Counted from the first letter of the stretch, positions 1-52,998 are shown. The stretch: 64,000 nt of DNA from a virus (IMGVR_UViG_3300045963_000248:20510-84509), one strand, 5' to 3'. Program-made: numbers and translations. The notes: generated by a model not told the origin, from the sequence alone.

Positions 1-131
1 TTCAAGTTTTTCCACTAAATCTTTTTCAATAAAATTATCAATGCATGCTGAGCAGGGGCATTCAAATTCTTTAGAAGTAAAGTGATCTGTAATTTGAATA
101 TTTTCGTTTTTTTTGAATTTTAAAAGCATAC
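1..131 (-). CDS. partial CDS (N-terminal part, continues left of window), Cys-containing hypothetical protein
   Basis: ATG at 131..129 on minus strand; open frame to window edge (MLLKFKKNENIQITDHFTSKEFECPCSACIDNF...). Confidence 0.35.
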
Positions 132-140
132 CATCCTAAA

Positions 141-184
141 TAAAAAAAGGAGCTATACAAAAGAGGGAGGGAATGTATAGCTCC
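141..184 (-). terminator. intrinsic terminator-like hairpin (10-bp stem GGAGCTATAC/GTATAGCTCC) followed by T-run on minus strand
   Basis: perfect inverted repeat 149..158 / 175..184, A-run 141..148 on + (= U-run after hairpin on minus). Confidence 0.55.
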
Positions 185-205
185 AATATCGCTCATCCTG
201 AGCAT
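141..205 (-). ncRNA. candidate small RNA (~60 nt) from minus-strand sigma70 promoter to hairpin terminator
   Basis: promoter 213..241 (-) directly upstream, terminator 141..184 directly downstream, no ORF. Confidence 0.3.
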
Positions 206-212
206 TTGTTAA

Positions 213-241
213 ATAATAACACACTTTAAAAACAATGTCAA
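213..241 (-). promoter_or_regulatory. sigma70-type promoter, minus strand (TTGACA-17-TATTAT)
   Basis: revcomp of 236..241 = TTGACA; revcomp of 213..218 = TATTAT; 17-nt spacer. Confidence 0.5.
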
Positions 242-339
242 CTTTTTTCTTTACTTTGGCGAAAATATAGCTTATAGTATATAACGCTCCTCTTGGAGTA
301 CCGCAACCACTCGGACTTTCGAAATATATATCTTAATTC

Positions 340-368
340 TTGACAAAATATATAGTTTAGTATATAAT
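340..368 (+). promoter_or_regulatory. early sigma70-type promoter (TTGACA-17-TATAAT)
   Basis: ttgaca 340..345, tataat 363..368, consensus hexamers and spacing. Confidence 0.6.
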
Positions 369-403
369 TATACAACAAATATTAAAAATAATTAATTTAG
401 TTG

Positions 404-431
404 TTGACAAAAAAGTAATTATGAGTATAAT
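404..431 (+). promoter_or_regulatory. early sigma70-type promoter (TTGACA-16-TATAAT), tandem to 340..368
   Basis: ttgaca 404..409, tataat 426..431; flanking sequence is a near-duplicate of the upstream promoter unit. Confidence 0.6.
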
Positions 432-540
432 GGCTGAATTACTTGGCGGCGTTTCGCTTAGGCTCCACTTGCTGTGAGTACGTTGCTGAGCATGACAATT
501 GTGAAGCCCTAAATGCGCCCTTTTCTGAAAAATCCCAAAA

Positions 541-577
541 TACACACTATTTTCAATAATTTAACAACTTAATGTAG
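541..577 (+). promoter_or_regulatory. phage late-promoter motif copy 1 (TACACA-N14-TTAACAACTTA-ATG-TAG)
   Basis: one of ten near-identical bipartite motifs, all + strand, upstream of structural operons. Confidence 0.6.
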
Positions 578-684
578 AGAGTCTGAGTAAAACAAGTCAG
601 ACCGACACTTTAGAGTGTTATAGGGAATTCCCAGCAAGCTGCTAACGGAGTAACCAGACTTTCTTTTTAAAACAGGATGTTTAT

Positions 685-960
685 ATGCGAAAGAATGACA
701 TGTATTTTTTACTAGTATTATTATTTATTGTAAAATTGATAGCCTTGCCTATTGGATTCCCTGATGCAGCAGTACTTTTAGTATTATTAGCTTATCGACC
801 AGTATCTCAGCTTTTAAAACTGCAGGAAAAACAGAAAATTTCAAATGAGAATGCTGTAAAGTTTGCTGAAGTGGAAAATTCTTTAGAAAATATGCAGAAA
901 ACTATAGAGTCAATAAAAATTAAAGAAGCTATTGTTAACCAATTTGGTGGGAAAAGATAA
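685..960 (+). CDS. small membrane protein
   Basis: hydrophobic N-terminus; first ORF after late promoter copy 1; start overlaps next gene (ATGA). Confidence 0.45.
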   Translation: MRKNDMYFLLVLLFIVKLIALPIGFPDAAVLLVLLAYRPVSQLLKLQEKQKISNENAVKFAEVENSLENMQKTIESIKIKEAIVNQFGGKR

Positions 961-1385
961 TGACTAATTTATTAGATCTAACACAATTTCGTACTTTGAA
1001 AGAGCTTCAAGATTATGCAAATGCTCAATTTTTGACTATCAGCACTATGAAAGAAAAACTCGACGATCAAAAAAATAAGATAGCTCACTTGGAATCTTTA
1101 CTTGTAAATAAAGCTACAGTACTCGGAGTAGATTCGCAATCAGAAGAGATTGCTAAAATTGAAATAAATCGCATGTATCAAAAAGTTTTAAAAGCTCCTC
1201 TAGATTTTGCAGAAGTGAAAGCATTAGAAACGTTTACAAAAATACTTTTAGCGGCTAAAGGTAAAGAAGTTGACGAGAAAAAAGAAAAGAAAACTGAAAA
1301 AGCTTTAAAGCAATTATCACCGCAGGAATTAATTAATATTGCATTACAAAAAACTCCAGAAGAGCAGGAATCTGAAGGTAACTAA
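960..1385 (+). CDS. coiled-coil protein; candidate small terminase subunit by position only
   Basis: 141 aa, translationally coupled upstream of HNH + large terminase. Confidence 0.45.
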   Translation: MTNLLDLTQFRTLKELQDYANAQFLTISTMKEKLDDQKNKIAHLESLLVNKATVLGVDSQSEEIAKIEINRMYQKVLKAPLDFAEVKALETFTKILLAAKGKEVDEKKEKKTEKALKQLSPQELINIALQKTPEEQESEGN

Positions 1386-2026
1386 TGTCACGGGAAGATT
1401 ATTTAAAACGTCGAGAAGCTCAATTAAAATATAAAGCAGATAAACTGCGTAATAGAACCCCAGAGCAAATTGAGTTAGATCGAATTAAATCAAAAGAGTA
1501 CCGGATCGCTAATAAAGAGCGCATTAGAGAAGCTCAAAAAAAATATTACAATGATAACAAAGAGACGTTATTACAAGATGCTCAAGAATATCGAGATAGT
1601 CACCGAAAACAGATCTCCGAGAGAAACTTAAAAAAATATAAATCTGATAAACAGAAAATTCTAACTAAAAATAGAAATTACTATTACAAAAATAAAGATA
1701 GAGTTAAAGCTCAGAGAGATCAGTATCGTAGTGAAAATTTAGCGCAACATAATCATCGAAGTGCTCTGCGACATGCGGTAAAATTAAAAGCTACTCCAAA
1801 ATGGTTAACGGAAGAAGATATTTTAAACATTAAAGCTGTGTATAAAAAAGCAAAAGAGTTACAGGAGTTAGATGGGATTCCCCGAGAAGTAGATCATATA
1901 GTTCCCTTACAAGGTGAAACAGTATCAGGTTTGCATGTTCCTTGGAATTTACAAATCTTAACTAAATCTGAAAATTCCAGTAAAAAAAATAAGTTATTAG
2001 AGGAGATAGCATGTCAAGTACATTAA
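1385..2026 (+). CDS. HNH endonuclease (terminase-associated), basic YxxNK repeats + C-terminal HNH
   Basis: C-terminal GIPREVDHIVPLQGETVSGLHVPWNLQILTKSEN motif; paralog of 7843..8418 and 8873..9517; overlaps terminase start. Confidence 0.8.
   Translation: MSREDYLKRREAQLKYKADKLRNRTPEQIELDRIKSKEYRIANKERIREAQKKYYNDNKETLLQDAQEYRDSHRKQISERNLKKYKSDKQKILTKNRNYYYKNKDRVKAQRDQYRSENLAQHNHRSALRHAVKLKATPKWLTEEDILNIKAVYKKAKELQELDGIPREVDHIVPLQGETVSGLHVPWNLQILTKSENSSKKNKLLEEIACQVH
1781..1960 (+). repeat. dispersed repeat (HNH C-terminal domain coding), copy 1 of 3
   Basis: ~75-80% nt identity to 8195..8375 and 9281..9460. Confidence 0.6.
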
Positions 2027-3447
2027 CTCCTGCAGAAGCCCGTAAAGCAATATGGTTAAGCGGGAACATTGTAGATTTTCTACTAGATGCAAATCAGAAA
2101 GAAATCTATAAACAATACAAAGAATCTAGAAGGAAAACTCAAGTCGTAGTTTTAGCTAGACAGATGGGAAAGTCTTATGGACTTCTTACAATCGGAGTAC
2201 AAGAATGCCTATTACGTCCTAATATTACAGTCCACTATATAGCTCCGCGATTAAATCAAGGTAAGAAGATTGTAAGAGCTACTTTTCAAGAAATTTTTAA
2301 AACATGCCCTAAAGAATTAAGACCTGAATATAAAACTCAAGAATCCTGTTATATATTCCCTAATGGGAGTAGACTAGAGCTTGGAGGCTTTAATGCGGGG
2401 GAAATTGAATCTCAACGAGGTCCAAAATCGAACCTAATAATTTGTGATGAAGCTGGTTTCTGTGATGGATTAAATTACGGATTGCGATCTGTTCTATTTC
2501 CTAAATTAAATAGTACTAAAGGAAAAATGTTACTCTGTAGTACTTTACCAAAATCTGCAGCTCATGAATATTGGGAGATTGTAAAGAAGGCAGAATACGA
2601 TGGAACTCTCCTAAAAAAAGATATATTTGACTGCCCTAGGTATACTAAAGAAGAGATAGATAGTTTCGCAGAAGAGGTAGGTGGCTATGACTCCGTAGAT
2701 TTTCAACGTGAGTACAAATGCATGATGATTACGGACCAAGAATCCGCAGTATTCCCAGAAGCTACCGAAGAAAAAATGGCAAATATTATAAAAGAAAATA
2801 AACGTCCAGCATTTTACGATAGCTATGCAGCAATGGATATTGGTTTTCGAGACTATACTGCAGTAATATACGGATATTATGATTTTTTAAAAGGTAAAAT
2901 AATAATTGAAGATGAAATACTTTTAAAAGGTAGTAAAGTTACTACTAATTCTTTAGCGGGACTTATAAAAATTAAAGAAGATGAATTATTTCCTTCAAAG
3001 CCAGTATACCTTCGAGTATCAGATAATAATAATCCTATTTTTCTAAACGATTTAGCACAAGAGCCTCACAAATTGTATTTTATGCCAACGCTAAAAGACG
3101 ATAAGGATTCTGCAATCAGTAAAGTGAGATTATTAATCCAACAGGAAAAGATAATAATCCACCCGCGATGTAAAACACTAATTAACCACGTAAAATACGC
3201 AACTTGGGATAGTAAAAGAAGTAAATTCGAAAGAGACTTACAAAATGGTCACTTTGACGCAGCAGATGCTTTAATTTACCTGGTGCGAAACATTCAATTA
3301 CAAAAAAATCCCTATCCAAATAGTTATTTTCTCCCCGAAGGTGTTCTCTGGGATACTACCGACCGAAATGCTCCTAAAAACGATTTTGAAAAGAATATGA
3401 AGGAACTTTTTAATCCATTTCGTAAAAAAGAACAGAAAATCTCTTAA
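2011..3447 (+). CDS. terL: terminase large subunit
   Basis: Walker A-like VVLARQMGKS, Walker B IICDEAGF, C-terminal nuclease-like region; 478 aa; position before portal. Confidence 0.85.
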   Translation: MSSTLTPAEARKAIWLSGNIVDFLLDANQKEIYKQYKESRRKTQVVVLARQMGKSYGLLTIGVQECLLRPNITVHYIAPRLNQGKKIVRATFQEIFKTCPKELRPEYKTQESCYIFPNGSRLELGGFNAGEIESQRGPKSNLIICDEAGFCDGLNYGLRSVLFPKLNSTKGKMLLCSTLPKSAAHEYWEIVKKAEYDGTLLKKDIFDCPRYTKEEIDSFAEEVGGYDSVDFQREYKCMMITDQESAVFPEATEEKMANIIKENKRPAFYDSYAAMDIGFRDYTAVIYGYYDFLKGKIIIEDEILLKGSKVTTNSLAGLIKIKEDELFPSKPVYLRVSDNNNPIFLNDLAQEPHKLYFMPTLKDDKDSAISKVRLLIQQEKIIIHPRCKTLINHVKYATWDSKRSKFERDLQNGHFDAADALIYLVRNIQLQKNPYPNSYFLPEGVLWDTTDRNAPKNDFEKNMKELFNPFRKKEQKIS

Positions 3448-3459
3448 AAATCTCCAAAA

Positions 3460-3496
3460 TACACATAAATAATCAATATTTAACAACTTAATGTAG
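3460..3496 (+). promoter_or_regulatory. phage late-promoter motif copy 2
   Basis: TACACA 3460..3465, 14-nt spacer, TTAACAACTTA 3480..3490, TAG 3494..3496. Confidence 0.6.
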
Positions 3497-3525
3497 CACG
3501 AAGCTCTATAAAAATAGGTGAATAA

Positions 3526-5610
3526 ATGGTAACTACTTCAAATCGTAAAATCGAATCGACATATTTTGCCGCTAAATCCGATCCTCTGGAAGTAGCAGTT
3601 ACAGTAATGGATAAAGTAGAAACTTTTACTCAAACTCTTCGAGGTTTAGGTATTCACCAAAAACTAAGAGACTGCTGGGCAGCTTACCACGGAGCATATT
3701 ACAACACTTTCGGCGGCGGGCACCAAATTACTTTCGGCGGCGAGCAAGGTGAACTTTCTCACTTACCGATAAACCACATTAGAAATATTGCTCAACACAT
3801 GAAAACAATGACTCTAGCTTCTAGACCTAGTTTTGATGCCAGAGCAGCAAATACCGACCCAAAATCGCTTATACAAGCTCAATTAGCTTCAGGCTTACTA
3901 GATTACTATATGCGTGAAAAACGCTTAGAAAGATACATTTCTACAGCCGTGGAATACGCTATTGTTTTAGGAGCCGGGTACGTAAAGACAGCTTGGGACC
4001 AAGGACAAGGAAAAATTACAGAAAGAGATACTGACGAGGAAGGAAGAGACGTAATAATCCGTGAAGGTGATATTACTTTTTCCAACCTCTCCCCTTTTGA
4101 AGTTATTTACGACTTATCGAAACAAGATCAAAATCACGATTGGCTAATTACAGTAGAATTCAAAAATAGATACGATATTATTGCAAAGTTCCCGGAGCAC
4201 GAATCTGAAATTTTAGGGCTTGGCGGAAAAGACGAATGGCAAGGGTTAATTTTTAACAAAACTATGGCTACGGAAGAAATTCCAGTGTTTACTTTTTTCC
4301 ACAGACCTACAGATTCAGTACCTGACGGAAGAGAGATCATTTTAGTATCTGAAAACTGTGTTTTAACAGATCAGCCGCTACCGTACAAAGAAATACCAGT
4401 TTATCGAGTTTCCCCGAACGACGTTTTGGGAACTGCAATGGGTTACGCTAACATTTACGATTTATTGCCAATTCAAGATGCAATTAATACTTGCTATACT
4501 TCAGTATTTTCAAATCAAGTTGCTTTTGGGACACAAAACCTATTTGTCGAAACTGGAAGTAATATTTCCATGTCAAATTTAGGCGGCGGATTAAATATTA
4601 TCGAAGGGTTAAAAAAACCAGAAGTGTTACAACTTTTAGGAACATCCCCCCAAAGTTTTCAGTTAATTACTATGCTAGAAAATCTAATGGAAACACTTTC
4701 AGGGATAAACTCAGTCACCCGGGGTAATCCAGAAGCTAATTTAAAATCAGGAACATCTTTAGCTATGGTGCAATCTATGGCAGTACAGTTTATTTCTGGT
4801 TTACAGCAACAATATGTATGTTTACTAGAAGATGTTGGTACAGGTGTAATTAATATTCTAAAAGATTATGCTACAGAGCCGAGAGTAGCCAGTATAGTTG
4901 GAAAAAATAATAAAGCTTATTTGAAAACTTTTAAATCTGATGATTTACAAGAAGTAAATAGAGTAATTGTAGACGTAGGAAATCCTCTTGCAAAAACTAC
5001 TGCAGGAAGAATGGAAATTGCACAACAATTAATGCAAATGAAGCCTGACGACTTTACTATTGCTCAATTTATACAGTTAATTAATACTGGTAATTTAGAT
5101 GTAATGACAGATAGATCAACTAAAAAAATTAATCAACTAGAAATGGAAAATGAAAGACTAATGGCAGGAACTCCTGTAAAAGCTTTTGCATTTGACGACC
5201 ATATTGAACACATAAAAGAACATACAAGTTTACTAGACGATCCAGATATTCGTGAAAGTGACGAATTAAATGCTGCAGTATTAGCACATATTCAAGAACA
5301 CATCGATTTATCGAGAAACACTGACCCTGCAGTACAGCAAGCGTTAGGACACCAAGTTTTACCTCCTCTACCGCCGCCAATGCCAATGGACGCAAACGGT
5401 AATCCGTTACCTCCGCCTCCAGTAGGTCCAGATGGACAGCCTTTACAGGTTCCACCGGCAAATGCTCAGGGAGCTATGCAAAATGATGCTGGAAATATGC
5501 CTAATCCACCGGCACCTACTCCTAATTTACCAAATGTTCCACAGGGAGCAGAAGTTCAAGCAACAAATCCGCAAGATATGCTAAGTATTGTCGCAGGTCA
5601 GAAAAGTTAA
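3526..5610 (+). CDS. portal protein (Pro-rich C-terminal tail)
   Basis: 694 aa directly after large terminase; size and position typical of portal; C-terminal PPLPPPMP... low-complexity tail. Confidence 0.7.
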   Translation: MVTTSNRKIESTYFAAKSDPLEVAVTVMDKVETFTQTLRGLGIHQKLRDCWAAYHGAYYNTFGGGHQITFGGEQGELSHLPINHIRNIAQHMKTMTLASRPSFDARAANTDPKSLIQAQLASGLLDYYMREKRLERYISTAVEYAIVLGAGYVKTAWDQGQGKITERDTDEEGRDVIIREGDITFSNLSPFEVIYDLSKQDQNHDWLITVEFKNRYDIIAKFPEHESEILGLGGKDEWQGLIFNKTMATEEIPVFTFFHRPTDSVPDGREIILVSENCVLTDQPLPYKEIPVYRVSPNDVLGTAMGYANIYDLLPIQDAINTCYTSVFSNQVAFGTQNLFVETGSNISMSNLGGGLNIIEGLKKPEVLQLLGTSPQSFQLITMLENLMETLSGINSVTRGNPEANLKSGTSLAMVQSMAVQFISGLQQQYVCLLEDVGTGVINILKDYATEPRVASIVGKNNKAYLKTFKSDDLQEVNRVIVDVGNPLAKTTAGRMEIAQQLMQMKPDDFTIAQFIQLINTGNLDVMTDRSTKKINQLEMENERLMAGTPVKAFAFDDHIEHIKEHTSLLDDPDIRESDELNAAVLAHIQEHIDLSRNTDPAVQQALGHQVLPPLPPPMPMDANGNPLPPPPVGPDGQPLQVPPANAQGAMQNDAGNMPNPPAPTPNLPNVPQGAEVQATNPQDMLSIVAGQKS

Positions 5611-5655
5611 ATATGAAGTGGTGTAAAAAACAAATACGATAAAAGAGGGTAAGAA

Positions 5656-6369
5656 ATGCACGACGAAAACGATCCAAGATTTAAAAAATTATTAGACAAT
5701 TTAAAAAGTCAGACGGATGCGTATAACGCTGCAAATAAACCTGTAATACAAATTCCAGATTCGTTGCAAGCTCATGGCGAAGTTACTCATCAAATTCCAA
5801 TGGATATGCCAAAATCTGTACCAGCGGAGCAACTTGCTCACGTAGCGGAAGAAATTCCACATAATCCAGGAATGTTAAAAAATCTAGAAGATCAATCTGC
5901 AAAATTCCTAGGCGCTGGAAATAAAATGGAGCAATTTGATCACGTGGTAAATCCAGCAAAAATCACAGATCTTTCCCCTCAGTTACTAAATAAATACATG
6001 AAAACTGGTATCCCTTTAGTCGATAAAGCATACAGTCCACTTGGAAATATCGCAAGAAAAGCTAGTAGCCTTGCTCCAGCGCTTTTAAAAGCTTTAGGAG
6101 TAGGAGGAGCACTTTACGGAATGTCTCAGGGGGATGCTTTTGCAGCCGATCCTACAGGTATGCTACACAGCGAGGAAGCTGGAAAAGGTAGCGATGTAAT
6201 TCCTACAGGTGCAGATCATTTCAATGCAGTAAACGACTCTAGAATGGATACTAAAATACTTCCTAAAGCTATTTCCCCGCAGTCCATAGACGCAACTCAG
6301 GAACCAGAGGAGCGGGCAAAGACGCAAGCATTCGATGCACTTTTAAATCAGATGAGACAGAAGCCTTAA
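5656..6369 (+). CDS. hypothetical head-module protein
   Basis: 237 aa ORF with SD (agaggg) between portal and scaffold. Confidence 0.5.
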   Translation: MHDENDPRFKKLLDNLKSQTDAYNAANKPVIQIPDSLQAHGEVTHQIPMDMPKSVPAEQLAHVAEEIPHNPGMLKNLEDQSAKFLGAGNKMEQFDHVVNPAKITDLSPQLLNKYMKTGIPLVDKAYSPLGNIARKASSLAPALLKALGVGGALYGMSQGDAFAADPTGMLHSEEAGKGSDVIPTGADHFNAVNDSRMDTKILPKAISPQSIDATQEPEERAKTQAFDALLNQMRQKP

Positions 6370-6697
6370 AACGTTTTACATACCAGTGTTTTGAAATATC
6401 AGGTCTTCTATAAGGTATTTTAGTATTATATTTGTATACACCGTTTAGCCAAGCATACGCTACGTGCTCAGGGGAATCCGTTCCAATAGTTTTTACCACA
6501 AAATCGTAACCTAAAGATGCTTTCTGTATTTCAGACAGTTTTACATTTTTGTATTTAAATGCTTTTTTAGCGTCCGAGAGGAATTTAGGCATAATGCCGT
6601 ATTCACCTTTTGCAGAGGAAGCATGTTGTAAATATTTCCCGTCTGAGGATTCGAGATAGCGTATAATTTTTAATGTTTCAGTTTTTTGCATATCCAT
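6269..6697 (-). CDS. putative lysozyme-like / lytic transglycosylase (SLT-like) protein; convergent moron in head module
   Basis: ES...GxxGIMP...AYAWLNG resembles SLT family motifs (ES / GLMQ / AYNxG); own sigma70 promoter 6704..6732 (-); 100-nt 3' overlap with 5656..6369. Confidence 0.4.
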   Translation of the reverse strand: MDMQKTETLKIIRYLESSDGKYLQHASSAKGEYGIMPKFLSDAKKAFKYKNVKLSEIQKASLGYDFVVKTIGTDSPEHVAYAWLNGVYKYNTKIPYRRPDISKHWYVKRFKASVSSDLKVHRMLASLPAPLVPELRLWTAGK

Positions 6698-6703
6698 AAA
6701 ACT

Positions 6704-6732
6704 AGTTTACCATTAAATTACAATAATGTCAA
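6704..6732 (-). promoter_or_regulatory. sigma70-type promoter, minus strand (TTGACA-17-TAAACT) for 6269..6697
   Basis: revcomp 6727..6732 = TTGACA; revcomp 6704..6709 = TAAACT; 17-nt spacer; overlaps upstream half of late promoter copy 3. Confidence 0.5.
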
Positions 6733-6733
6733 A

Positions 6734-6772
6734 TACACAAAAACAGATCAAATTTAACAACTTATACTGTAG
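6734..6772 (+). promoter_or_regulatory. phage late-promoter motif copy 3
   Basis: TACACA 6734..6739, N14, TTAACAACTTA 6754..6764, TAG 6770..6772; 31 nt identical to copy 4. Confidence 0.6.
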
Positions 6773-6812
6773 CAAGCAATAATGCCCTACAACTATAGCC
6801 TACCCCGAAAGG

Positions 6813-7757
6813 ATGGCAACAGGAGTATTTATGTCAGGTGAAAACGAAGGGTCAATCGACTCGTCGGCGGATTTTAGTCCAGAAGAAACAGCAGAATTTG
6901 ATGCAGAACAATCAGTTGGAGAGCAAGCTCCGGTATCTGCAGAACAAAAAGCTATCGAAGAGAAAATTAACGAATTAGAAATGGAACTTAAAGTTAACGG
7001 AAAAGTTATTAAGGAAAAAGTAAACCTTAACGATAAAGTACGTTTACAAAAAGCATTTCAAATGGAAAAAGCTGCACAGGAAGCAATGGCTAAATCTGCT
7101 AGCTCTCAAAAACAAATTGCTCAGATGGAGCAGGAAATGGATCAATTTTTACAAATGTTAAAAAATGACCCAATGAAAATTCTCAGTAATCCAGCTTTAG
7201 GATTAAAACTTGAAGATATGGCAGATAAAATACTAGCACAGAAAATTGAAGAAGCTAGCAAATCTCCAGAAACTATTGAGCTAGAAAAAGCTAGAGCAAA
7301 ACTAGAAGAATATGAAAAGAAAATACACGAAGAGAAATTAGCTAGAGAAACTGCAGAAAGACAGAAATTAGAAGCAGATGCAGAAGCTCATATTCAAGGT
7401 GAAATTATGGAAGCTATCGAATCTGGAAGCTTGCCGAAGTCTCCGTATATTATTAATAAAATGGCACAGCTTGCTAGTATTGCTTTTGATAATAATATTG
7501 ATGTAAACATGAAAGATTTAGCACCTATTGTAAAACGTATGTATTCTAGAGATATGAAGGATATGGCTGAAAAGATGTCAGATGATGAAATTGAAGAAAT
7601 TATTACATCGGATCGCGTTAAGAGTATTCGAAATAAAAGAATACAGGCGGCGAGAGGTAAAATGCAAAGTGCCACTAAAATTGTAGATACTGGCTCAAAA
7701 TCTCCTGCAAAAAAAGAAACTCCAGTACAAAGACGAAGACTCGATGCTGACTGGTAA
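6813..7757 (+). CDS. scaffolding protein (acidic coiled-coil)
   Basis: 314 aa, E/K-rich coiled-coil, located between portal and capsid. Confidence 0.55.
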   Translation: MATGVFMSGENEGSIDSSADFSPEETAEFDAEQSVGEQAPVSAEQKAIEEKINELEMELKVNGKVIKEKVNLNDKVRLQKAFQMEKAAQEAMAKSASSQKQIAQMEQEMDQFLQMLKNDPMKILSNPALGLKLEDMADKILAQKIEEASKSPETIELEKARAKLEEYEKKIHEEKLARETAERQKLEADAEAHIQGEIMEAIESGSLPKSPYIINKMAQLASIAFDNNIDVNMKDLAPIVKRMYSRDMKDMAEKMSDDEIEEIITSDRVKSIRNKRIQAARGKMQSATKIVDTGSKSPAKKETPVQRRRLDADW

Positions 7758-7785
7758 GATTAACTAAAATTTAACCCCTAACTGA

Positions 7786-7808
7786 GGGAGCTTATGGCTC
7801 CCTTTTCT
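7786..7808 (+). terminator. intrinsic terminator (GGGAGC-TTATG-GCTCCC + TTTT)
   Basis: 6-bp GC-rich stem 7786..7802 then T-run 7803..7806, after scaffold gene. Confidence 0.55.
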
Positions 7809-7841
7809 ACACAAAAACAGATCAAATTTAACAACTTATAG
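7808..7841 (+). promoter_or_regulatory. phage late-promoter motif copy 4 (start codon 7843 lies 2 nt after TAG: near-leaderless)
   Basis: TACACA 7808..7813, N14, TTAACAACTTA 7828..7838, TAG 7839..7841. Confidence 0.6.
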
Positions 7842-7842
7842 T

Positions 7843-8418
7843 ATGAAACATTGTAAAAAGTGTAATACTTTAAAGTTAAAAATTGAATTCCATAAAAATA
7901 AATCATTGAAAGATGGGCTATATGGAACTTGTAAAATTTGTACTAGAGCTATCAATAAACAATATACCAAAAACAATCCGGACATTATAAAAAAATCTAG
8001 TAGAAAATCTTATATTAAAAATAAAGATAAGATACTTTTAGAGAATAAAAAATGGGCAGAAAATAATACTGAAAAAGTAAAAGCTATAAAAAATAAATGG
8101 GCTAATAAACACATAGACCAAAAAAGAAGTAAAAATAGAAGGTGGAAAAAGGAAAATCCAGATAAAGTTAATGCTCAAACTGCTAAACGTCGAGCTGCTA
8201 AATTACAAGCAACTCCTCCTTGGATATCTGAGGAGCATTTAAAAGAAATAGAAAAATTCTATACGGAAGCTAAAAGGTTAGAAGCTACAGATGGAATTCC
8301 TCGAGAAGTGGATCATATATTACCTCTACAAGGGGATGGAGTTTCCGGTCTTCACGTTCCTTGGAATTTACAAGTTATTACTGAGTTTGAAAATAGAAGT
8401 AAACATAATAAATACTGA
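7843..8418 (+). CDS. HNH endonuclease with N-terminal CxxC zinc ribbon
   Basis: CKKC...CKIC ribbon, basic NK repeats, C-terminal AKLQATPPWISEEHL...GIPREVDHILPLQGDGVSGLHVPWNL motif. Confidence 0.8.
   Translation: MKHCKKCNTLKLKIEFHKNKSLKDGLYGTCKICTRAINKQYTKNNPDIIKKSSRKSYIKNKDKILLENKKWAENNTEKVKAIKNKWANKHIDQKRSKNRRWKKENPDKVNAQTAKRRAAKLQATPPWISEEHLKEIEKFYTEAKRLEATDGIPREVDHILPLQGDGVSGLHVPWNLQVITEFENRSKHNKY
8195..8375 (+). repeat. dispersed repeat (HNH C-terminal domain coding), copy 2 of 3
   Basis: ~75-80% nt identity to 1781..1960 and 9281..9460. Confidence 0.6.
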
Positions 8419-8586
8419 GAGTGAGACACTATGCTCATAAACTGTTCCCGAAAAAGAGACACATTCTAGGTAGCGAGAGGTCGGGATAAAAAAACCTATG
8501 CTGTTAAAACCTAGAGCCTTTGGTAGTTTCGGCGGTAAGAAACATGTAAACTATTTTATCACCCAGACTTCTTAGGGATTCTGGCG

Positions 8587-8618
8587 GCAAGGCTTCTTCG
8601 GAAGCCTTTGCTTTTTTA
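8587..8618 (+). terminator. intrinsic terminator (AAGGCTTC-UUCG-GAAGCCTT + T7)
   Basis: 8-bp stem with UUCG tetraloop 8589..8608, T-run 8612..8618. Confidence 0.6.
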
Positions 8619-8647
8619 TTGACTTGTATTTAAAAACATGATAGAAT
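8619..8647 (+). promoter_or_regulatory. sigma70-type promoter (TTGACT-17-TAGAAT)
   Basis: ttgact 8619..8624, tagaat 8642..8647, 17-nt spacer. Confidence 0.5.
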
Positions 8648-8653
8648 ACAATT

Positions 8654-8710
8654 CTCCTTAGATAAAAGTTGCTTTCCAGAAGAGCCGCTACTCACAGAGC
8701 GGCTTTTTTA
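8654..8710 (+). ncRNA. candidate small RNA (~57 nt) bounded by promoter 8619..8647 and terminator 8683..8710
   Basis: no ORF or start codon; promoter and terminator only ~35 nt apart. Confidence 0.35.
8683..8710 (+). terminator. intrinsic terminator (AGCCGCT-loop-AGCGGCT + T6)
   Basis: 7-bp stem 8683..8689 / 8698..8704, T-run 8704..8709. Confidence 0.6.
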
Positions 8711-8718
8711 TTTCTCCC

Positions 8719-8738
8719 GAAATTAACACTACAGTTAA
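8719..8738 (+). promoter_or_regulatory. degenerate late-promoter-like copy (AAATTAACACTACAGTTAAT)
   Basis: partial match to TTAACAACTTA..TAG core without the upstream TACACA half. Confidence 0.3.
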
Positions 8739-8768
8739 TATTAGGAGACAAACTAGAAAATTCCTCTA

Positions 8769-8787
8769 AAATTAACACTATAGTATG
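8769..8787 (+). promoter_or_regulatory. degenerate late-promoter-like copy (AAATTAACACTATAGTATG)
   Basis: core resembles copy 4/5 (TTAACA[A]CT[T]ATAGTAT) but with 2-nt deletion and no upstream half. Confidence 0.3.
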
Positions 8788-8821
8788 TATTAAATTTTGA
8801 CATGTTTTTGTATCAAAAAAC

Positions 8822-8855
8822 TGCATAAAAAACCTTTACAATTAACAACTTATAG
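8822..8855 (+). promoter_or_regulatory. phage late-promoter motif copy 5
   Basis: TGCATA 8822..8827, N14, TTAACAACTTA 8842..8852, TAG 8853..8855. Confidence 0.55.
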
Positions 8856-8872
8856 TATAAAGTATAGTTGAG

Positions 8873-9517
8873 GTGACTGTGAAAACTTGTACAAAGTGCG
8901 GCATTGAAAAAGAATTAACGGTTGATAATTTTAAACCAAGAAAGAAGTCTAAAGATGGATTTAGAAATGATTGTAGAGTATGTTCTAATTTAAAACATGC
9001 GGAATGGACTATTGAGAATTTAGATAAAGCAAAAGCTAATCAAGCTAGATGGTATCAGAATAATAAAGAACATGCCAAAATAGTTCAAGATAAATATTAC
9101 CAAGACAATAAAGAAAAGAAATTAGCACAGCAAAAAATTTATCGCAAAAATAATAAAATAAAAATAGATTTGAAAAATAAAAACTGGGCAGATAAGAATC
9201 CTGCTAAAATAAAACAGTATAATAAAGAATTCGGACAAAGACATCCTGACAAAATTGCAGCAAAAACTGCAAAAAGACGAGCTGCTAAACTACAAGCCAC
9301 TCCTCCGTGGCTTACAGAAGAGCACTTAAAGCAAATTGAAGATTTATATACTGAGTCTAAACGACTAGAAGCTTTAGATGGGATTCCTCGTGAAGTTGAT
9401 CATATCATACCGTTATTAGGGGAGACTGTTAGAGGTTTACACGTGCCTTGGAATTTAAGAGTAATTACGGCTAAAGAAAACGGTAGTAAAAACAATAAGT
9501 TAATTCTAATAGATTAA
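8873..9517 (+). CDS. HNH endonuclease with N-terminal CxxC zinc ribbon (GTG start; alternative GTG at 8879)
   Basis: CTKC...CRVC ribbon, basic NK repeats, C-terminal AKLQATPPWLTEEHL...GIPREVDHIIPLLGETVRGLHVPWNL. Confidence 0.8.
   Translation: MTVKTCTKCGIEKELTVDNFKPRKKSKDGFRNDCRVCSNLKHAEWTIENLDKAKANQARWYQNNKEHAKIVQDKYYQDNKEKKLAQQKIYRKNNKIKIDLKNKNWADKNPAKIKQYNKEFGQRHPDKIAAKTAKRRAAKLQATPPWLTEEHLKQIEDLYTESKRLEALDGIPREVDHIIPLLGETVRGLHVPWNLRVITAKENGSKNNKLILID
9281..9460 (+). repeat. dispersed repeat (HNH C-terminal domain coding), copy 3 of 3
   Basis: ~75-80% nt identity to 1781..1960 and 8195..8375. Confidence 0.6.
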
Positions 9518-9520
9518 AAT

Positions 9521-9557
9521 TACGCAACTTTCATTAAATTTTAACAACTTAATATAG
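9521..9557 (+). promoter_or_regulatory. phage late-promoter motif copy 6 (capsid operon)
   Basis: TACGCA 9521..9526, N14, TTAACAACTTA 9541..9551, TAG 9555..9557; followed by 130-nt leader with CCUC-UUCG-GGGG stem-loop. Confidence 0.6.
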
Positions 9558-9691
9558 GATTGCCTCTTCGGGGGAATACTAGATTAGACGCACAGCAAGC
9601 TTTCTGCCCTGTAGCCATCCTATCACGTAAATACCAAAAAAGCAATACTAATTTATTAAACTTATTATTATTTTAAACAAAGGATTTTTTT

Positions 9692-10939
9692 ATGGCAAAC
9701 GTTGCCGCAGACCTAACCCGATTAAACGGGCTTGTTAAAGAAGTGTATGGAGATAGTGTTATTGAACTTATTCCAATACAATCTAAACTTCAATCAATCA
9801 TTAAATTCGCTGAGAGAAACAAAACTCCAGGGAACTTTTTCTCTCAACCTTTAGCTCTTCAATTAGAGCACGGTGTAACTTATGCAGATGGTGACGATGG
9901 AGCTTTCGCTCTTAACGACGCTATTTCTTCTGTAGTTAAACATGCAAGAGTACGCGGTTCTCAAATGCTTTTGAGATCAGTAATCGCTTACGAACTTCTT
10001 GCAGCAGCTAATACAAAAGACAACAGATCTTTTGAAAACGCTACAAAATATATCGTTCAAGCAATGGTAGATTCTATGTCTAAAAAACATGAAGTATCAT
10101 TAATGTACGGTGGTAACAACATCGGTATCGTTTCTGGAGCAGTAACTTCTGCAGTTTCGATCACTGACGCTGAATGGGCACCAGGTATCTATTCAGGTGC
10201 AAAAGATATGAAAGTTGACATCTTTGACTCTGCAAAATCAGTGTTAAGAGGAACTTTCGTAATTTCAGGTGTTGACTTCGACCTTAAAAAAATTACTATG
10301 ACAACTGACGCTGCTGCGGCTGGTGTTGTTGCTACAGACGTAATCCTTCCTGCTGGTGCATACCAAATCGGTGGATCTTCTGCTGGTAAAGAAATGGTAG
10401 GATTACACGAAATCCTAGCTAACACTGGTACACTTTTCGAAATTTCTGCTGCTCAGTATGAATTATGGAAAGGTAACGTGTATAACGCTGGTGGAGAATT
10501 AACTTTCGAAAAACTTATTAAAGCAATGGCTCGTCCGGCTGAAAAAGGTTTAGAAAAAGACGTTATCGCTATCGTTAACCCAAAAACTTGGTCATCTTTA
10601 ATGAAAGATCAAGCTGCTTTAAGAAGATTTGACTCTTCATACAGCACTAAGAAATTAGATAACGGTGCAATGGCTATCGAATTTTATTGTCAATCAGGTA
10701 AAATTGAAGTTCAATCTTCTATTTACTGTAAAGAAGCTTACGCTTATATCTTCAATGCTGAAGACATGAAACGTATTGGTTCTACAGACATCACTTTCCA
10801 ATTACCAGGATTACCAGATAATTTCTTAACTCAAGCTCCAAACAATGCTGGATATGAATTAAGATGTTACGTAAACTCTGCATTATTCTGTAGAGCGCCA
10901 GGTAAGACTTTATTGATTACGGGTATCACGCATCCATGA
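9692..10939 (+). CDS. major capsid protein
   Basis: 415 aa after scaffold; own promoter, long leader, strong terminator downstream; composition typical of a highly expressed structural protein. Confidence 0.65.
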   Translation: MANVAADLTRLNGLVKEVYGDSVIELIPIQSKLQSIIKFAERNKTPGNFFSQPLALQLEHGVTYADGDDGAFALNDAISSVVKHARVRGSQMLLRSVIAYELLAAANTKDNRSFENATKYIVQAMVDSMSKKHEVSLMYGGNNIGIVSGAVTSAVSITDAEWAPGIYSGAKDMKVDIFDSAKSVLRGTFVISGVDFDLKKITMTTDAAAAGVVATDVILPAGAYQIGGSSAGKEMVGLHEILANTGTLFEISAAQYELWKGNVYNAGGELTFEKLIKAMARPAEKGLEKDVIAIVNPKTWSSLMKDQAALRRFDSSYSTKKLDNGAMAIEFYCQSGKIEVQSSIYCKEAYAYIFNAEDMKRIGSTDITFQLPGLPDNFLTQAPNNAGYELRCYVNSALFCRAPGKTLLITGITHP

Positions 10940-10966
10940 TTTCAACTACTTAGCTAACTAAGTGTA

Positions 10967-10995
10967 GAAGGCGAGAATTTCTCGCCTTCTTTTTA
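10967..10995 (+). terminator. intrinsic terminator (GAAGGCGAG-AATTT-CTCGCCTTC + T5)
   Basis: 9-bp GC-rich stem 10967..10989, T-run 10990..10994, right after capsid gene. Confidence 0.7.
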
Positions 10996-11014
10996 ACCTT
11001 ATTAAGGATGATAT

Positions 11015-11530
11015 ATGATTAAATTTTTAATAAAATGTACAGAATGTCTAGAGGAGAAAAGTGAATCTGAATTTCATGGAGATCCTTTAAAAATTAATAG
11101 AAGAAGATCTAATTGTAAAAAGTGTGAGAATGCCAGGTGTGCTAGGTATTTTCAAAATAATAAAGAAAAGCGTAATGCTTATCAATTAGAGCGTCACCAT
11201 AAACGTAAACTAAGTGATCCTATGTATATTTTAAAACGTCGCTATAGGAATCGCCTTAAAAAAGTATTTCGCTACAAAGGCATTGTAAAAGTAACTTCCT
11301 CCATGGAATTCCTAGGATGTACCGCAGAAGAGTTTAAAGTTTATTTTGAAAGCTTATTTTCCCCCGAAATGAACTGGGATGCCGTTTACGCGGGAAAAAT
11401 CCATATCGACCATATTATCCCAATTTCCACCGCCAAAACAGAAGAAGAATTAGTAAAACTGTCACATTACACTAATTTACAACCTCTCTGGGCTGTTGAT
11501 AACTTGAAAAAAGGCTCCGGGGACATTTAG
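11015..11530 (+). CDS. HNH-family endonuclease-like protein with N-terminal Cys cluster
   Basis: CTEC...CKKC N-terminus; C-terminal HIDHIIPIS...N..PLW..DN motif. Confidence 0.55.
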   Translation: MIKFLIKCTECLEEKSESEFHGDPLKINRRRSNCKKCENARCARYFQNNKEKRNAYQLERHHKRKLSDPMYILKRRYRNRLKKVFRYKGIVKVTSSMEFLGCTAEEFKVYFESLFSPEMNWDAVYAGKIHIDHIIPISTAKTEEELVKLSHYTNLQPLWAVDNLKKGSGDI

Positions 11531-11539
11531 AAAACAAAA

Positions 11540-11575
11540 TACACACTTTACATCTATTTTTAACAACTTATATAG
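11540..11575 (+). promoter_or_regulatory. phage late-promoter motif copy 7 (ATG only 9 nt after TAG)
   Basis: TACACA 11540..11545, N14, TTAACAACTTA 11560..11570, TAG 11573..11575. Confidence 0.6.
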
Positions 11576-11584
11576 AGGTAAACC

Positions 11585-12052
11585 ATGTCTATAATTGTCA
11601 CAGTAAATAATATACCATTTAACTTACCTACAGAAGGTGAACCTGCTCCGTGGGGCGAGTCGCTTACAAATTACCTTGCTGAAGTTGCCGCTGTTTTAAA
11701 CTCTTTAAAAGGTGCTAACGACATTTTGGAAACTGGTGCAAACATTGCATTAAATCAAACTACTTTTGCCGATATTCAAGATTTTAAATTTAATCCAAAT
11801 ACAGTAAGATCTTTTATTGTTAACGGAAGTATTTCCCGAACTACAGACTCAGTAAAACAATATGAACAATTTACATTAACAGGATTACGCACCGACACAG
11901 ATTGGATACTATTCCAAGAAGGACTCGGGGATACAGGTGTAATTTTAGATATAACAAATGCCGGTCAGGTACAGTATAAATCTTCTACGATTTCCGGAAG
12001 TAATTATGCTGGTAAAATACTATTTAGAGGAATCGCAGTTGCACAAAGTTAA
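11585..12052 (+). CDS. structural protein (function unknown)
   Basis: 155 aa, first ORF of fibre operon. Confidence 0.45.
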   Translation: MSIIVTVNNIPFNLPTEGEPAPWGESLTNYLAEVAAVLNSLKGANDILETGANIALNQTTFADIQDFKFNPNTVRSFIVNGSISRTTDSVKQYEQFTLTGLRTDTDWILFQEGLGDTGVILDITNAGQVQYKSSTISGSNYAGKILFRGIAVAQS

Positions 12053-12081
12053 TTACGTTCTACAACAATTAGGGAGAGAAA

Positions 12082-20928: not shown

Positions 20929-21564
20929 GTGAAAACAGCAAACTGTTTACATTGTACAAAAGAATACACTACTAGAAAACTAACTCAAAAGTTTTGCGCT
21001 AAATCTTGTGCAAATAGTGCTAAAAAAGGTATCACATGTTCTCCTGCAACTCAATTTAAAAAAGGATCAGTTCCAGTTAATAAAAAAGAAAGTATAAAAA
21101 AAGTTTGTAAGTGCGGTAAAGAATTTGAAGTTAAGCCTTCAGAGGATAGAATTAAATCATGCTCTCAATCTTGTGCTAAAAAAGGATTACCTTCTCCTAA
21201 TAAAGGTAAAAAAGCATCTGAGGAAACTAGAAAAAAACAAAGAGATTCAAAATTAGGAATTAGAGGAGAAGCTCACTGGAACTATCGAGGTTATAAAAAT
21301 AAAAATGAGCGTAAAATTGCAATAGCTCAAGATGAATACAAACAATGGAGATTAGCAATATTCAAAAGAGATGAGTATACTTGTCAAATTTGTAATATTA
21401 AAGGTGGTACATTGCAAGCAGACCATATTGTACCATGGTGTATAAATAAAGAATTAAGATATGATATTAATAATGGAAGAACTTTGTGCATAGAATGTCA
21501 CAGAAAGACTCCAACTTATGGTGTAAAAGCTATAAAATATAAGGAGATTAAAAATGAGCGATAA
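20929..21564 (+). CDS. HNH endonuclease with multiple N-terminal Cys pairs
   Basis: CxxC x several; CQICNIKGGTLQADHIVPW...GRTLCIECHRK HNH motif; inserted between structural genes. Confidence 0.7.
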   Translation: MKTANCLHCTKEYTTRKLTQKFCAKSCANSAKKGITCSPATQFKKGSVPVNKKESIKKVCKCGKEFEVKPSEDRIKSCSQSCAKKGLPSPNKGKKASEETRKKQRDSKLGIRGEAHWNYRGYKNKNERKIAIAQDEYKQWRLAIFKRDEYTCQICNIKGGTLQADHIVPWCINKELRYDINNGRTLCIECHRKTPTYGVKAIKYKEIKNER

Positions 21565-42366: not shown

Positions 42367-42884
42367 TACAATCTCCCAAATAGTTCTCTAAAATAGTAAT
42401 CTTGATCTTTAAAAAAGCATCCAAAAAGCCCATCTGACGGATGCATAATTGACTTAGGGCAGCCGTTTTTCCTGTAACCCTCAACGTGATCTTTCCCTAG
42501 AGTACAGTGCCCTAATTCGTGTATCACTAAAGCGTATTTTTGCTCCACAGAGGCATTTTGGAAGTAAGCATAGTGTATTGATATAAATTTGGAAGCATGT
42601 CCATTAAACCCTTCGCAAAGCCCTACCCAATTCTTTACCGGAAACTTATCTACGAATTTTACTACTAGATTTTTGTAATCAGGGGATGCGCCGTACATTA
42701 TTGCTGTATCGTTAAAATACTTTACAATTGGAGTTAGTCCCGATTCTATTTGAGGTTTTTGATAAACCGCCCCAGTGAAAATAAGATAGTGAAGTATACA
42801 AGATAGTATAATAAAAACCGACCAATCACTCAGTATCCTTTTTACGTTTTTTAGAAGTTCTACGAGTTTCATTTTCGGCTCCAC
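42366..42884 (-). CDS. membrane-anchored zinc metallopeptidase (metzincin-like HELGHxxxGxxH + Met-turn SIMHP)
   Basis: N-terminal TM; HExxH motif VIHELGHCTLGKDH. Confidence 0.55.
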   Translation of the reverse strand: MEPKMKLVELLKNVKRILSDWSVFIILSCILHYLIFTGAVYQKPQIESGLTPIVKYFNDTAIMYGASPDYKNLVVKFVDKFPVKNWVGLCEGFNGHASKFISIHYAYFQNASVEQKYALVIHELGHCTLGKDHVEGYRKNGCPKSIMHPSDGLFGCFFKDQDYYFRELFGRL

Positions 42885-43164
42885 TTTTTCTCTTATGGCA
42901 ATCTTTACATATTATTTGTAACTTGTCAACAGGTACTTTTAAACGTGTTACAAAGCTGTCTAAGCTGTCCCAGCCTGTTGTAGGTGTAACCGGCTCAATA
43001 TGGTCGATCTGCACCTCTTTACGGGTAAAAATAAGCTTACAAGCTGCACATAGATACTGATTACGATCCACTCTCGCTGCTACCAGAGCTTGGTTCCGTT
43101 CCCGGTCCCGCATCCATGCCCTCCGTAGCACCTGTACTGCCCACGCTTTTAATTTGGAGTCCAT
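42826..43164 (-). CDS. small HNH endonuclease
   Basis: CAACKL...IDHIEP...CKDCHKRK; overlaps both neighbours. Confidence 0.55.
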   Translation of the reverse strand: MDSKLKAWAVQVLRRAWMRDRERNQALVAARVDRNQYLCAACKLIFTRKEVQIDHIEPVTPTTGWDSLDSFVTRLKVPVDKLQIICKDCHKRKSGAENETRRTSKKRKKDTE

Positions 43165-48777: not shown

Positions 48778-49290
48778 CTATTTTTCAGAAGCTGTCAAGT
48801 CTTTTATAAATCTACTTACACTTTGACGCGGAATTCCATATTTTCTAGATATCTGCATAACTTTTAAACCGTTTTGGAAGTCAATTCTAATCTCAGAAAT
48901 TAACTGAGGCTCGTGAGGTTTATCGCCTTTTTTAGAAACTGAATATCTAGATTTTCCAGCGACGTTATCGGTATTTTCTTTAGCTGATACCCATCTCAAA
49001 TTTGAAACGTGATTATTATTTTTATCTCTATCAATATGATCTATATATTTGTGATTTTCAGGATTAGGAATAAAAGCTTCGGCTACTAATCGATGAATGT
49101 ATTCTTGGTATAATTTAGGATTATACATTCCAACTTTCCAATAACCGTTACCGTTAGTAGAAAGCTTTAAATAAATTTCATTTTTAATTGAATAAACTTT
49201 ACCTGAGTCACAGATACAATAGTTCGGGCACTGAGGGATCACTTTCATGTTCATAAATACTCCTATGTTAATAGGACAAGTATAGCTCAA
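48778..49290 (-). CDS. HNH homing endonuclease (HNH_3 + C-terminal HTH)
   Basis: YWKVG...IHRLVAEAFIPNPENHKYIDHIDRDKNNNHVSNLRWVSAKEN; sits between polA and downstream genes. Confidence 0.8.
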   Translation of the reverse strand: MSYTCPINIGVFMNMKVIPQCPNYCICDSGKVYSIKNEIYLKLSTNGNGYWKVGMYNPKLYQEYIHRLVAEAFIPNPENHKYIDHIDRDKNNNHVSNLRWVSAKENTDNVAGKSRYSVSKKGDKPHEPQLISEIRIDFQNGLKVMQISRKYGIPRQSVSRFIKDLTASEK

Positions 49291-52761: not shown

Positions 52762-52998
52762 CTAAAAGTATTTGTTCTTGCGCAAAAATTCTACGAAAAT
52801 TTTAGCGTCTTTTAGTTTTTTAAAGTATTTAATCTTACTTTTATTTTGTCTTTTGATGTGTACTTTGTAATACTCTATTCCTGTTATACACACTTTGAAC
52901 ACGTATTCTTTACCTATTCTTTTTTTAGTTGCCGACGTATTTACACCGTTGTGTAAAGGTTTTGGCAACCCGTAAATTTTCTCATTAATGTAATTCAT
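52762..52998 (-). CDS. small basic protein
   Basis: 78 aa, K/R-rich. Confidence 0.4.
   Translation of the reverse strand: MNYINEKIYGLPKPLHNGVNTSATKKRIGKEYVFKVCITGIEYYKVHIKRQNKSKIKYFKKLKDAKIFVEFLRKNKYF

Follow-up and report, generated by a model that had tools for sequence, protein, structure and literature searches.

Most of the seven HNH endonuclease genes found in the viral DNA segment IMGVR_UViG_3300045963_000248:20510-84509 are probably selfish genes of the free-standing homing endonuclease type, located at intergenic junctions of an AT-rich phage. The window, as the whole stretch of 64,000 nucleotides analyzed will be called here, is a segment of a phage genome with a GC content of about 36%, and its source contig has 84,509 bp. 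The genes have been gained or lost between close relatives at fixed junctions, and different members of the same family occupy the same junction in different phages. Moreover, the insertions spare the neighboring genes: HNH1385 reuses the start context of the gene encoding the large terminase (TerL), and HNH7843 sits between terminators.

The HNH genes and their distribution among related phages

Three of the genes, named after their first position in the window, are paralogs on the plus strand. HNH1385 (1385..2026, 213 aa), between the gene g960 and TerL, encodes eight 15-aa helical repeats and a Cys-less HNH core, without a zinc ribbon; HNH7843 (7843..8418, 191 aa) encodes a zinc ribbon, five 15-aa repeats and the HNH core, and HNH8873 (8873..9517, 214 aa, GTG start) a zinc ribbon, seven such repeats and the HNH core. 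For HNH8873 the GTG at 8879 is a likelier start, as it yields MKTCTKC as in the homologs and has the Shine-Dalgarno (SD) sequence GAGGTGA ahead of it. HNH11015 (11015..11530, plus strand), between the terminator of the gene for the major capsid protein (MCP) and g11585, encodes a zinc ribbon, few repeats and an HNH core, and is a distant relative of the three paralogs (phrog_1035 at 1e-19, family profile at 5e-12). The remaining genes are an endonuclease gene of another family, with HNH and NUMOD3, located in the tail module (20929..21564, plus strand; Pfam HNH 2e-7), a small HNH gene of 112 aa (42826..43164, minus strand; PHROG HNH families, best 7e-14) and an HNH_3 endonuclease gene with NUMOD4/HTH-like regions (48778..49290, minus strand; Pfam HNH_3 6e-11) directly downstream of polA, 25 nt away. 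A first-pass annotation, made from the sequence alone, had listed the three paralogous ORFs, the HNH_3 gene beside polA and a total of seven HNH genes. All three statements hold, since the ORFs exist as described, the four further genes are backed by Pfam or PHROG, and a search of all 496 stop-to-stop ORFs with phmmer and the profile found no HNH members beyond the seven.

All the HNH genes are intergenic, lying between complete neighboring genes. Rfam gave nothing at gathering thresholds in the window, with a single sub-threshold sRNA match at 7700-9720 (27 bits vs 80), and ARAGORN found no tRNA; thus, with nothing above threshold, there is no evidence for any HNH gene within an intron. Phage T4 has about fifteen homing endonuclease genes. 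In Skunaviruses, 89 genomes contain 212 intact HNH genes, 2.4 for each genome on average (PMC12724721), and seven HNH genes in a phage of about 84 kb are not exceptional.

For the comparison with relatives, which the first-pass annotation had proposed as a check, 17 loci of the same terminase family were retrieved, with TerL identities to the window of 52-61% (L001-L015), 79-80% (L016) and 75% (L024/L025); L017 is the same phage as the window, and L049 the same contig as L024. Presence and absence vary at the g960|TerL, scaffold|MCP, MCP|g11585 and polA sites. At g960|TerL the HNH gene is present in the window and in L024/L025 (58% identity, same 16-nt overlap) and absent from L001-L016, where g960 directly abuts TerL. 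Between the scaffold gene and MCP, the 7843-type gene is present in the window and L024/L025 (56%) and absent from L016 and L018, and the 8873-type gene is present in the window, L016 (53%), L018 (50%) and L129 (74%) and absent from L024/L025; both types are absent from the distant L002, L004, L006 and L010. The MCP|g11585 junction holds an HNH gene in the window, in L024 (74%) and in L016 (42%, 234 aa), and none in L004, L006 and L010. No counterpart of the polA-adjacent HNH_3 gene lies downstream of polA in L048 (polA 85% identical), L049 (72%) or L026 (52%). About ten relatives of ~80 kb have polA proteins with 69-85% identity (P0234-P0242).

The alternation of 7843-type and 8873-type genes thus occurs between close relatives. 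Their portal (96.5% identity), g960 (89%), TerL (82%) and MCP (97.8%) place L016 and L024 nearer to one another than to the window, yet their HNH content is unlike at both the terminase and the scaffold|MCP sites. Further family members occur farther upstream in L018 and 0.5 kb downstream of polA in L049.

The terminase|portal junction is another variable one, occupied in L024 by an 89-aa pentapeptide-repeat ORF (11966-12235, minus strand) and in the otherwise near-identical L025 by a 224-aa ORF (6654-7328, minus strand); the window has no ORF there.

The first-pass annotation had treated all the HNH genes as one mobile set, which fits HNH1385, HNH7843, HNH8873, HNH11015 and the gene at 48778, but not the conserved gene at 42826. 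The latter is found at the same site in L048 (90% identity) and L049 (80%), with flanking genes at 56-71%, and it overlaps both neighboring ORFs. As it is kept better than its neighbors, it looks like a functional phage gene; it probably does not behave as a homing gene and serves the phage. For the gene at 20929, L051 and L054, which are distant loci with conserved synteny, have no homolog, and only distant or partial relatives came out of the IMG/VR scans made with 19275-20171 and the tail protein 21554-24562.

It could be argued that the other nucleases are also domesticated and serve the phage, by degrading host DNA, by excluding competitors without copying themselves, or by regulating late genes through their repeat array. 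Two copies are preceded by a probable late-gene promoter motif, the catalytic residues are intact in all copies, and the gene at 42826 is truly conserved, above its neighbors. However, the sporadic spread of HNH1385, HNH7843, HNH8873, HNH11015 and the gene at 48778 among close relatives speaks against a required function, and marker exclusion is itself a phenotype of homing endonucleases (PMC12724721), so that this explanation overlaps with that of selfish genes. As an alternative to the selfish type of gene, we consider domestication unlikely.

Insertion at the terminase and capsid gene junctions

At the terminase junction, the ATG of HNH1385 shares 1 nt with the stop codon of g960, and the last 16 nt of the gene overlap the TerL start. 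The corresponding junction of L016 reads ...GGCAAT TAG CC ATGTCAGAT..., that is, the g960 stop, two bases and the TerL start. In the window, ATGTCA is found at both ends of a 626-nt insert, at 1385-1390, where it starts the HNH ORF, and at 2011-2016, where it starts TerL, and the TerL start at 2011 is preceded by a GAGGAG SD sequence within the 3' end of HNH1385; the arrangement in L024 is the same. The duplication of ATGTCA indicates that the insert appropriated the start context of the terminase gene and restored an SD sequence and an ATG for TerL, leaving translational coupling intact.

Because of this position, the HNH1385 protein had been taken in the first-pass annotation for the packaging-associated HNH. 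It would then be a terminase-associated protein of the HK97 gp74 or GVE2 HNHE type that cuts concatemers together with the large terminase. The gene does adjoin TerL, its translation is coupled to that of both neighbors, L024/L025 have in this place a gene of 58% identity that likewise overlaps TerL by 16 nt, and HNH genes beside terminase genes are common in cos phages (PMC3592412, PMC5304195). Nevertheless, the gene is missing from 16 of the 18 related g960-TerL junctions, and therefore it is not a required packaging factor; the terminase of L016, which has no HNH gene at this junction, is 79-80% identical to that of the window and 82% to that of the HNH-bearing L024; and HNH1385 belongs to the same mobile family as HNH7843 and HNH8873. 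The comparison with the known proteins points in the same direction. The genes for HK97 gp74, the phage Gamma HNH and GVE2 HNHE adjoin the terminase, like HNH1385, and some members have extra zinc ribbons; however, terminase-associated HNH proteins are described as small, with a [CxxC]2 zinc site in their catalytic domain (PMC3592412), and as conserved with the terminase. The HNH1385 protein has 213 aa, a long eight-unit array and no [CxxC]2 zinc site in its HNH core, and most phages that share the terminase do not have its gene. A role in packaging is thus very unlikely.

The two other paralogs are associated with a repeated motif. TTAACAACTTA occurs in ten exact copies (561, 3480, 6754, 7828, 8842, 9541, 11560, 18256, 27648 and 35416), all on the plus strand and intergenic, 5-150 nt upstream of structural genes; with one mismatch allowed there are 13 matches, a number reached in 0/100 shuffles. 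A AAATACACA-like element lies about 13-14 nt ahead of each copy, and the motif is kept at matching positions in L016, L018 and L024. Judging from its conservation and placement, TTAACAACTTA is probably a late promoter or activator site. A copy lies directly ahead of HNH7843 and another directly ahead of HNH8873, as had been pointed out in the first-pass annotation for two of the three paralogs.

HNH7843 forms a self-contained unit made up of an upstream terminator, a duplicated promoter, the ORF and a second terminator. The scaffold gene preceding it ends in a terminator hairpin, GGGAGCC...GGCUCCC followed by a U run (7784..7807, plus strand; -14.1 kcal/mol, z = -3.5), and the same hairpin is present in L024. 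Immediately after it, 7808..7840 (plus strand) is an exact 33-nt copy of 6734..6766 (plus strand), the promoter-like element of the scaffold gene, whose motif is also found ahead of the scaffold gene in L016, L024 and L018, and which is the ancestral one of the pair. The copy ends 2 nt before the HNH7843 ATG, with the motif core 4 nt before it, and a terminator-like hairpin with a T run (8586..8618, plus strand) closes the unit. In L024, the HNH7843 ortholog lies behind the same terminator but has no promoter motif, and therefore a local duplication in the lineage of the window supplied the HNH7843 promoter.

Upstream of HNH8873, a late-promoter-like element (8821..8868, plus strand) contains the TTAACAACTTA core at 8842-8852 and is kept ahead of the positional orthologs in L016, L018 and L129. 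The degenerate promoter copies placed by the first-pass annotation at 8719..8787 are also there: two copies resembling the promoter core, AAATTAACACTAyAGT, can be read from the sequence at ~8720 and ~8769, 49 nt apart (8720..8791, plus strand).

Other elements were observed around the same genes. Between HNH7843 and HNH8873, the segment 8619-8714 (plus strand) has a strong sigma-70-like promoter, TTGACT-17-TAGAAT with TG, after which come ~30 nt of RNA without structure and a terminator hairpin (8678-8709; -16.7 kcal/mol, z = -2.5), and it would yield a candidate small RNA of about 60 nt within the late module. The same junction in L018 has an analogous arrangement of terminator, TTGACT promoter, short transcript and terminator, without sequence similarity. 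Downstream of the promoter motif, the capsid gene has a 150-nt leader (9552-9691) with a small GC hairpin (GCCUCUUCGGGGG) at its start; overall, the folding of this leader is no better than that of shuffled sequences (z = 0.5).

Domain replacement and age of the paralogs

The nuclease domain of HNH8873 was swapped for that of its neighbor HNH7843 by an old gene conversion or recombination. Up to ~9277 the gene (plus strand) is orthologous to P0002, P0003 and P0004, and from 9278 to 9514 it is of the 7843 type, according to identities, trees and Fisher's test. In the N-terminal two thirds, the nearest relative of the HNH8873 protein is P0002, from another contig, with 77% identity, and HNH7843 ranks 93rd of 119; in the C-terminal domain, HNH7843 and HNH8873 are mutual best matches at 77%, with P0002 at 67% to HNH8873. 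Bootstrapped neighbor-joining trees group HNH8873 with P0002 in 200/200 replicates for the N-terminal part, and with HNH7843 in 142/200 and P0002 in 1/200 replicates for the C-terminal part. At the nucleotide level, HNH8873 is 78-85% identical to P0002 up to about residue 125 and 64-69% beyond, vs 45-58% early and 72-77% after the breakpoint to HNH7843. Informative sites divide 121:27 to the left and 24:44 to the right of nt 9277 (Fisher p=3.6e-11; 196 positions tested). The recipient is HNH8873, because the signature GIPREVDH, present in HNH8873, HNH7843, HNH1385 and the L024 copies, replaces the GIKRHVDH of its positional orthologs P0002, P0003 and P0004.

This exchange gives another meaning to the dispersed repeat that the first-pass annotation had reported for the three paralogs, together with recombination hotspots. 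A direct-repeat search delimits a 256-nt family on the plus strand at 1737-1992, 8156-8411 and 9243-9498, which encodes the nuclease domain, and the last copy roughly matches the recombination tract. The pairwise nucleotide identities are 74, 67 and 61% over the full 256 nt; in the best 180-nt windows they reach 77% for HNH7843 vs HNH8873, and 69% and 66% for the other pairs, so that the 75-80% given earlier for about 180 nt is right for the first pair only. Likewise, the domain described as almost identical is indeed shared, but the proteins are 61-77% identical in it. Identical codons at identical residues number 39, 41 and 54 for the three pairs, vs 34.1, 41.3 and 47.8 expected from codon usage (z = 1.3, -0.1 and 1.4), with no excess over the phage's own codon usage. 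Thus, at the synonymous level the pairwise comparison suggested in the first-pass annotation shows no similarity above the codon-usage background, and the DNA repeat is a conserved protein domain in an AT-rich genome; it is the mark of an old domain replacement between neighboring copies. The chimera breakpoint near 9277 and the promoter copy do support recombination.

Recent or active duplication, which had been proposed along with homing, was discarded, since codon identity shows no excess and the synonymous sites are saturated. In their N-terminal parts, the paralogs rank 79th-117th of 119 family members relative to one another. What is retained of the proposal is mobility and old recombination.

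The same data bear on the possibility that these genes are an ordinary paralog family, duplicated in this genome and vertically inherited without horizontal mobility, in which the differences between phages are simple deletions. The three paralogs have in common the rare GIPREVDH signature, DGIPRE being found in 3/120 sequences, all from this genome, and the mutual best match of the HNH7843 and HNH8873 C-terminal domains is also what would be expected. On the other hand, the relationship of the N-terminal two thirds of HNH8873 to P0002 and not to HNH7843 contradicts it, as does the presence of different family members at the same junction of sister phages and at further, different sites in L018 and L049; moreover, the family is scattered over unrelated phages. 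We regard purely vertical paralogs as improbable, and selfish genes remain the preferred explanation.

The HNH family, homing and the phage

HNH1385, HNH7843, HNH8873 and, more distantly, HNH11015 belong to one very large uncharacterized phage HNH family. The three paralogs match PHROG 1035 (E 1e-11 to 3e-24) and PHROG 26577 (E ~1e-18), and searches returned 1,625 proteins at E<=1e-3 with HNH8873 as the query and 3,714 at E<=1e-10 with HNH1385. The homologs occupy many phage contexts, such as ribonucleotide reductase (RNR), helicase and polB neighborhoods, and are mostly named hypothetical; they appear as McrA in the metagenome collection and as HNH endonuclease or similar in GenBank phages and BFVD. 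None of the Pfam or NCBIfam models reaches its threshold for this family of more than 3,700 members, and no solved structure is related to it.

The family layout consists of a zinc ribbon, an array of 15-residue helices of varying copy number, an AKRRAAKLxATPxW linker and a cysteine-less H-N-N core. The C-terminal domain shared by the three paralogs reads AKLxATPxW...GIPREVDHIxPL.G..V.GLHVPWNL..EN.SK.NK. HNH nucleases of the beta-beta-alpha-metal superfamily have a conserved His, the general base, in the first strand, then an Asn and, in the helix, an Asn or His that binds the metal. In VDHIxPL..G..xGLHVPWNL...EN, the positions V-D-H, P, G, H, N and N do not vary among 120 family members; D-H, the N of NLQ and the N of EN are kept in all three paralogs, so that the catalytic residues are intact in every copy, and the HNH11015 core reads IDHI...NLQ...DN. 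The core of the three-paralog family is an HNH motif of the H-N-N kind that lacks the customary zinc-binding cysteines. An alignment of the family with the Pfam-positive protein of 20929 (hhalign) covers the DHI strand alone, at a probability of 8%.

The N-terminal basic Y-x-x-N-K-E repeats and the CxxC zinc ribbon of two of the three proteins, both noted in the first-pass annotation, are real: CxxC...CxxC is present in HNH7843 and HNH8873 and absent from HNH1385, and the repeats are strictly 15-residue units, eight in HNH1385, five in HNH7843 and seven in HNH8873, with the consensus N-[K/P]-[E/D]-K-[I/V]-x-A-x-x-K-x-[Y/W]-[R/Y]-x-x. Across the family, with about 3 to >8 units per member, the distance from the second CxxC to ATPxW steps by 15 (peaks at 63, 78, 93, 108, 123 and 138; 43/76 sequences in one register), and therefore repeat number varies in a modular fashion. 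The AF2 model of the HNH8873 protein (pLDDT 96) has a small ribbon, seven 14-residue helices (residues 35-139), one for each repeat, a long helix and a beta-beta-alpha unit (strand 173-177, strand 195-199, helix 200-205). Foldseek with this model against the PDB ranks Cas9 HNH domains and colicin E7 at the top, with weak E values of ~1-10, and the best BFVD matches are phage and giant-virus models named HNHc/HNH endonuclease, with E down to 2e-10; when the PDB was searched by sequence profile, the sole result was a weak match of the zinc ribbon to Hpy99I (E 0.09). The helix array is presumably the part of the protein that binds DNA and recognizes the target. A more specific idea, that it is a modular DNA-reading domain of variable copy number in which each repeat contacts a fixed step of DNA, is a long shot; if true, the array would determine the length of the target and the specificity in a very large homing endonuclease family (more than 3,700 detectable members) and would be a new repeat-based scaffold for DNA recognition.

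Several known systems resemble the one described here. Among the free-standing homing endonuclease genes of T4 are mobE and the Seg genes, and MobA-E of T4-like phages are intergenic HNH genes between essential genes, sporadic in relatives and thought to spread by intronless homing, as in the genes of the window (PMC2790892, PMC2988022). Unlike in the T4 Mob proteins, to which no sequence relationship was detectable in the searches run, the architecture here is a zinc ribbon, a 15-aa array and a Cys-less core. The I-HmuI-like and other HNH genes of the lactococcal Skunaviruses are also several per genome, vary in number and location, and cluster by insertion site; they are located among genes for structure and packaging, and marker exclusion is one of their effects (PMC12724721). 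Enzymes of the I-HmuI type bind DNA via NUMOD/IENR modules, but here NUMOD3 is found only in the protein of 20929, and the three paralogs have a different repeat array. A link to the F-CphI/T4 endonuclease VII family, named DHHRN, comes from PHROG 1035, which is the best match of these proteins and is annotated as endonuclease VII. F-CphI is a free-standing phage homing endonuclease with an active site of the beta-beta-alpha-metal type, as is also probable for the proteins studied here, and in its family DHDH lies between CX2-4C and CX2C, and an R and an N are conserved (PMC6083498), unlike the VDHI(I/V/L)PL...GLHVPWNL...EN of these proteins, which has no flanking or core cysteines. The endonuclease VII label was dropped, as DHDH with flanking cysteine pairs is missing from these proteins.

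A mechanism of intronless homing may account for the distribution of the genes. In a mixed infection, the nuclease would nick or cut the allele without the gene, near the insertion site, and repair from the genome carrying the gene would copy it, together with its flanks, into the cut genome.

Some points weigh against selfish homing genes and must be taken into account. Nuclease activity, target sites and homing are inferred for these genes. The Pfam HNH cut-off (21.4 bits) is not reached by HNH8873 (13.7 bits, E 0.069) or HNH11015 (16.7 bits), HNH1385 and HNH7843 have no match to it, and an NCBIfam search of the three paralogs gave zero matches. The gene at the 1385 site is syntenic in two lineages, with 58% identity against 69-75% for its neighbors, which vertical descent with loss explains as well as repeated homing does. 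Tracts of co-conversion are not demonstrable, because the orthologs are too diverged (42-74% identical). Finally, the saturated synonymous sites imply that the paralogs are old, so that there is no sign of current activity.

Homing genes of other kinds were observed in the contigs analyzed. Phage contigs, whether related or not, carry GIY-YIG endonuclease genes (L002 1682-2404, minus strand; L021 1030-1686, beside DNA polymerase B), and therefore other homing endonuclease families circulate in the same phage populations. In two distant relatives (L053 11054-13073 and L057 11090-12476), the capsid gene is seemingly broken after about residue 53, by ~1 kb with a GIY-YIG endonuclease ORF (11516-12169) in L053 and by ~200 nt in L057. 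This break looks like an intron with and without a homing gene; Rfam gave no group I intron match on L053 and L057, and nothing at gathering thresholds.

The phage of the window is new. A megablast of positions 1-12500 against 50,697 GenBank phage records gave zero matches, the closest match of its MCP is from a Silvanigrella phage, at only 26% identity and with no other found, and genome contigs scanned with the terminase contained no relative. The same phage is present in a second sample, whose contig L017 differs from the window in 1 of 13,781 bases. The structural module is on the plus strand, from about 0.6 to 40.6 kb, and includes TerL (2011-3447), portal (3526-5610) and MCP (9692-10939), all assigned by PHROG profiles; the replication module lies beyond it on the minus strand, with polA (49315-51807) and a primase-helicase (52998-54977), both assigned by Pfam and PHROG. 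A cluster of consensus sigma-70 promoters at the left end of the window (213-431) consists of TTGACA-17-TATAAT at 340-368, TTGACA-16-TATAAT at 404-431 and one divergent promoter at 241-213. It is probably a control region of the early or divergent type.

The overall phenomenon is textbook phage biology, the work of a well-known kind of phage parasite. What deserves attention is how seamlessly the insert joins the terminase start, how a promoter was captured and a nuclease domain replaced, and also the uncharacterized 15-residue array, which could merit structural and biochemical study. For annotation, the lesson is that an HNH gene beside a terminase gene is not automatically a packaging factor. 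The window offers a clean natural example of selfish nuclease genes remodeling the head-gene module of a phage, through insertions that preserve translational coupling, a local promoter captured by duplication and the replacement of a nuclease domain by that of a neighbor.

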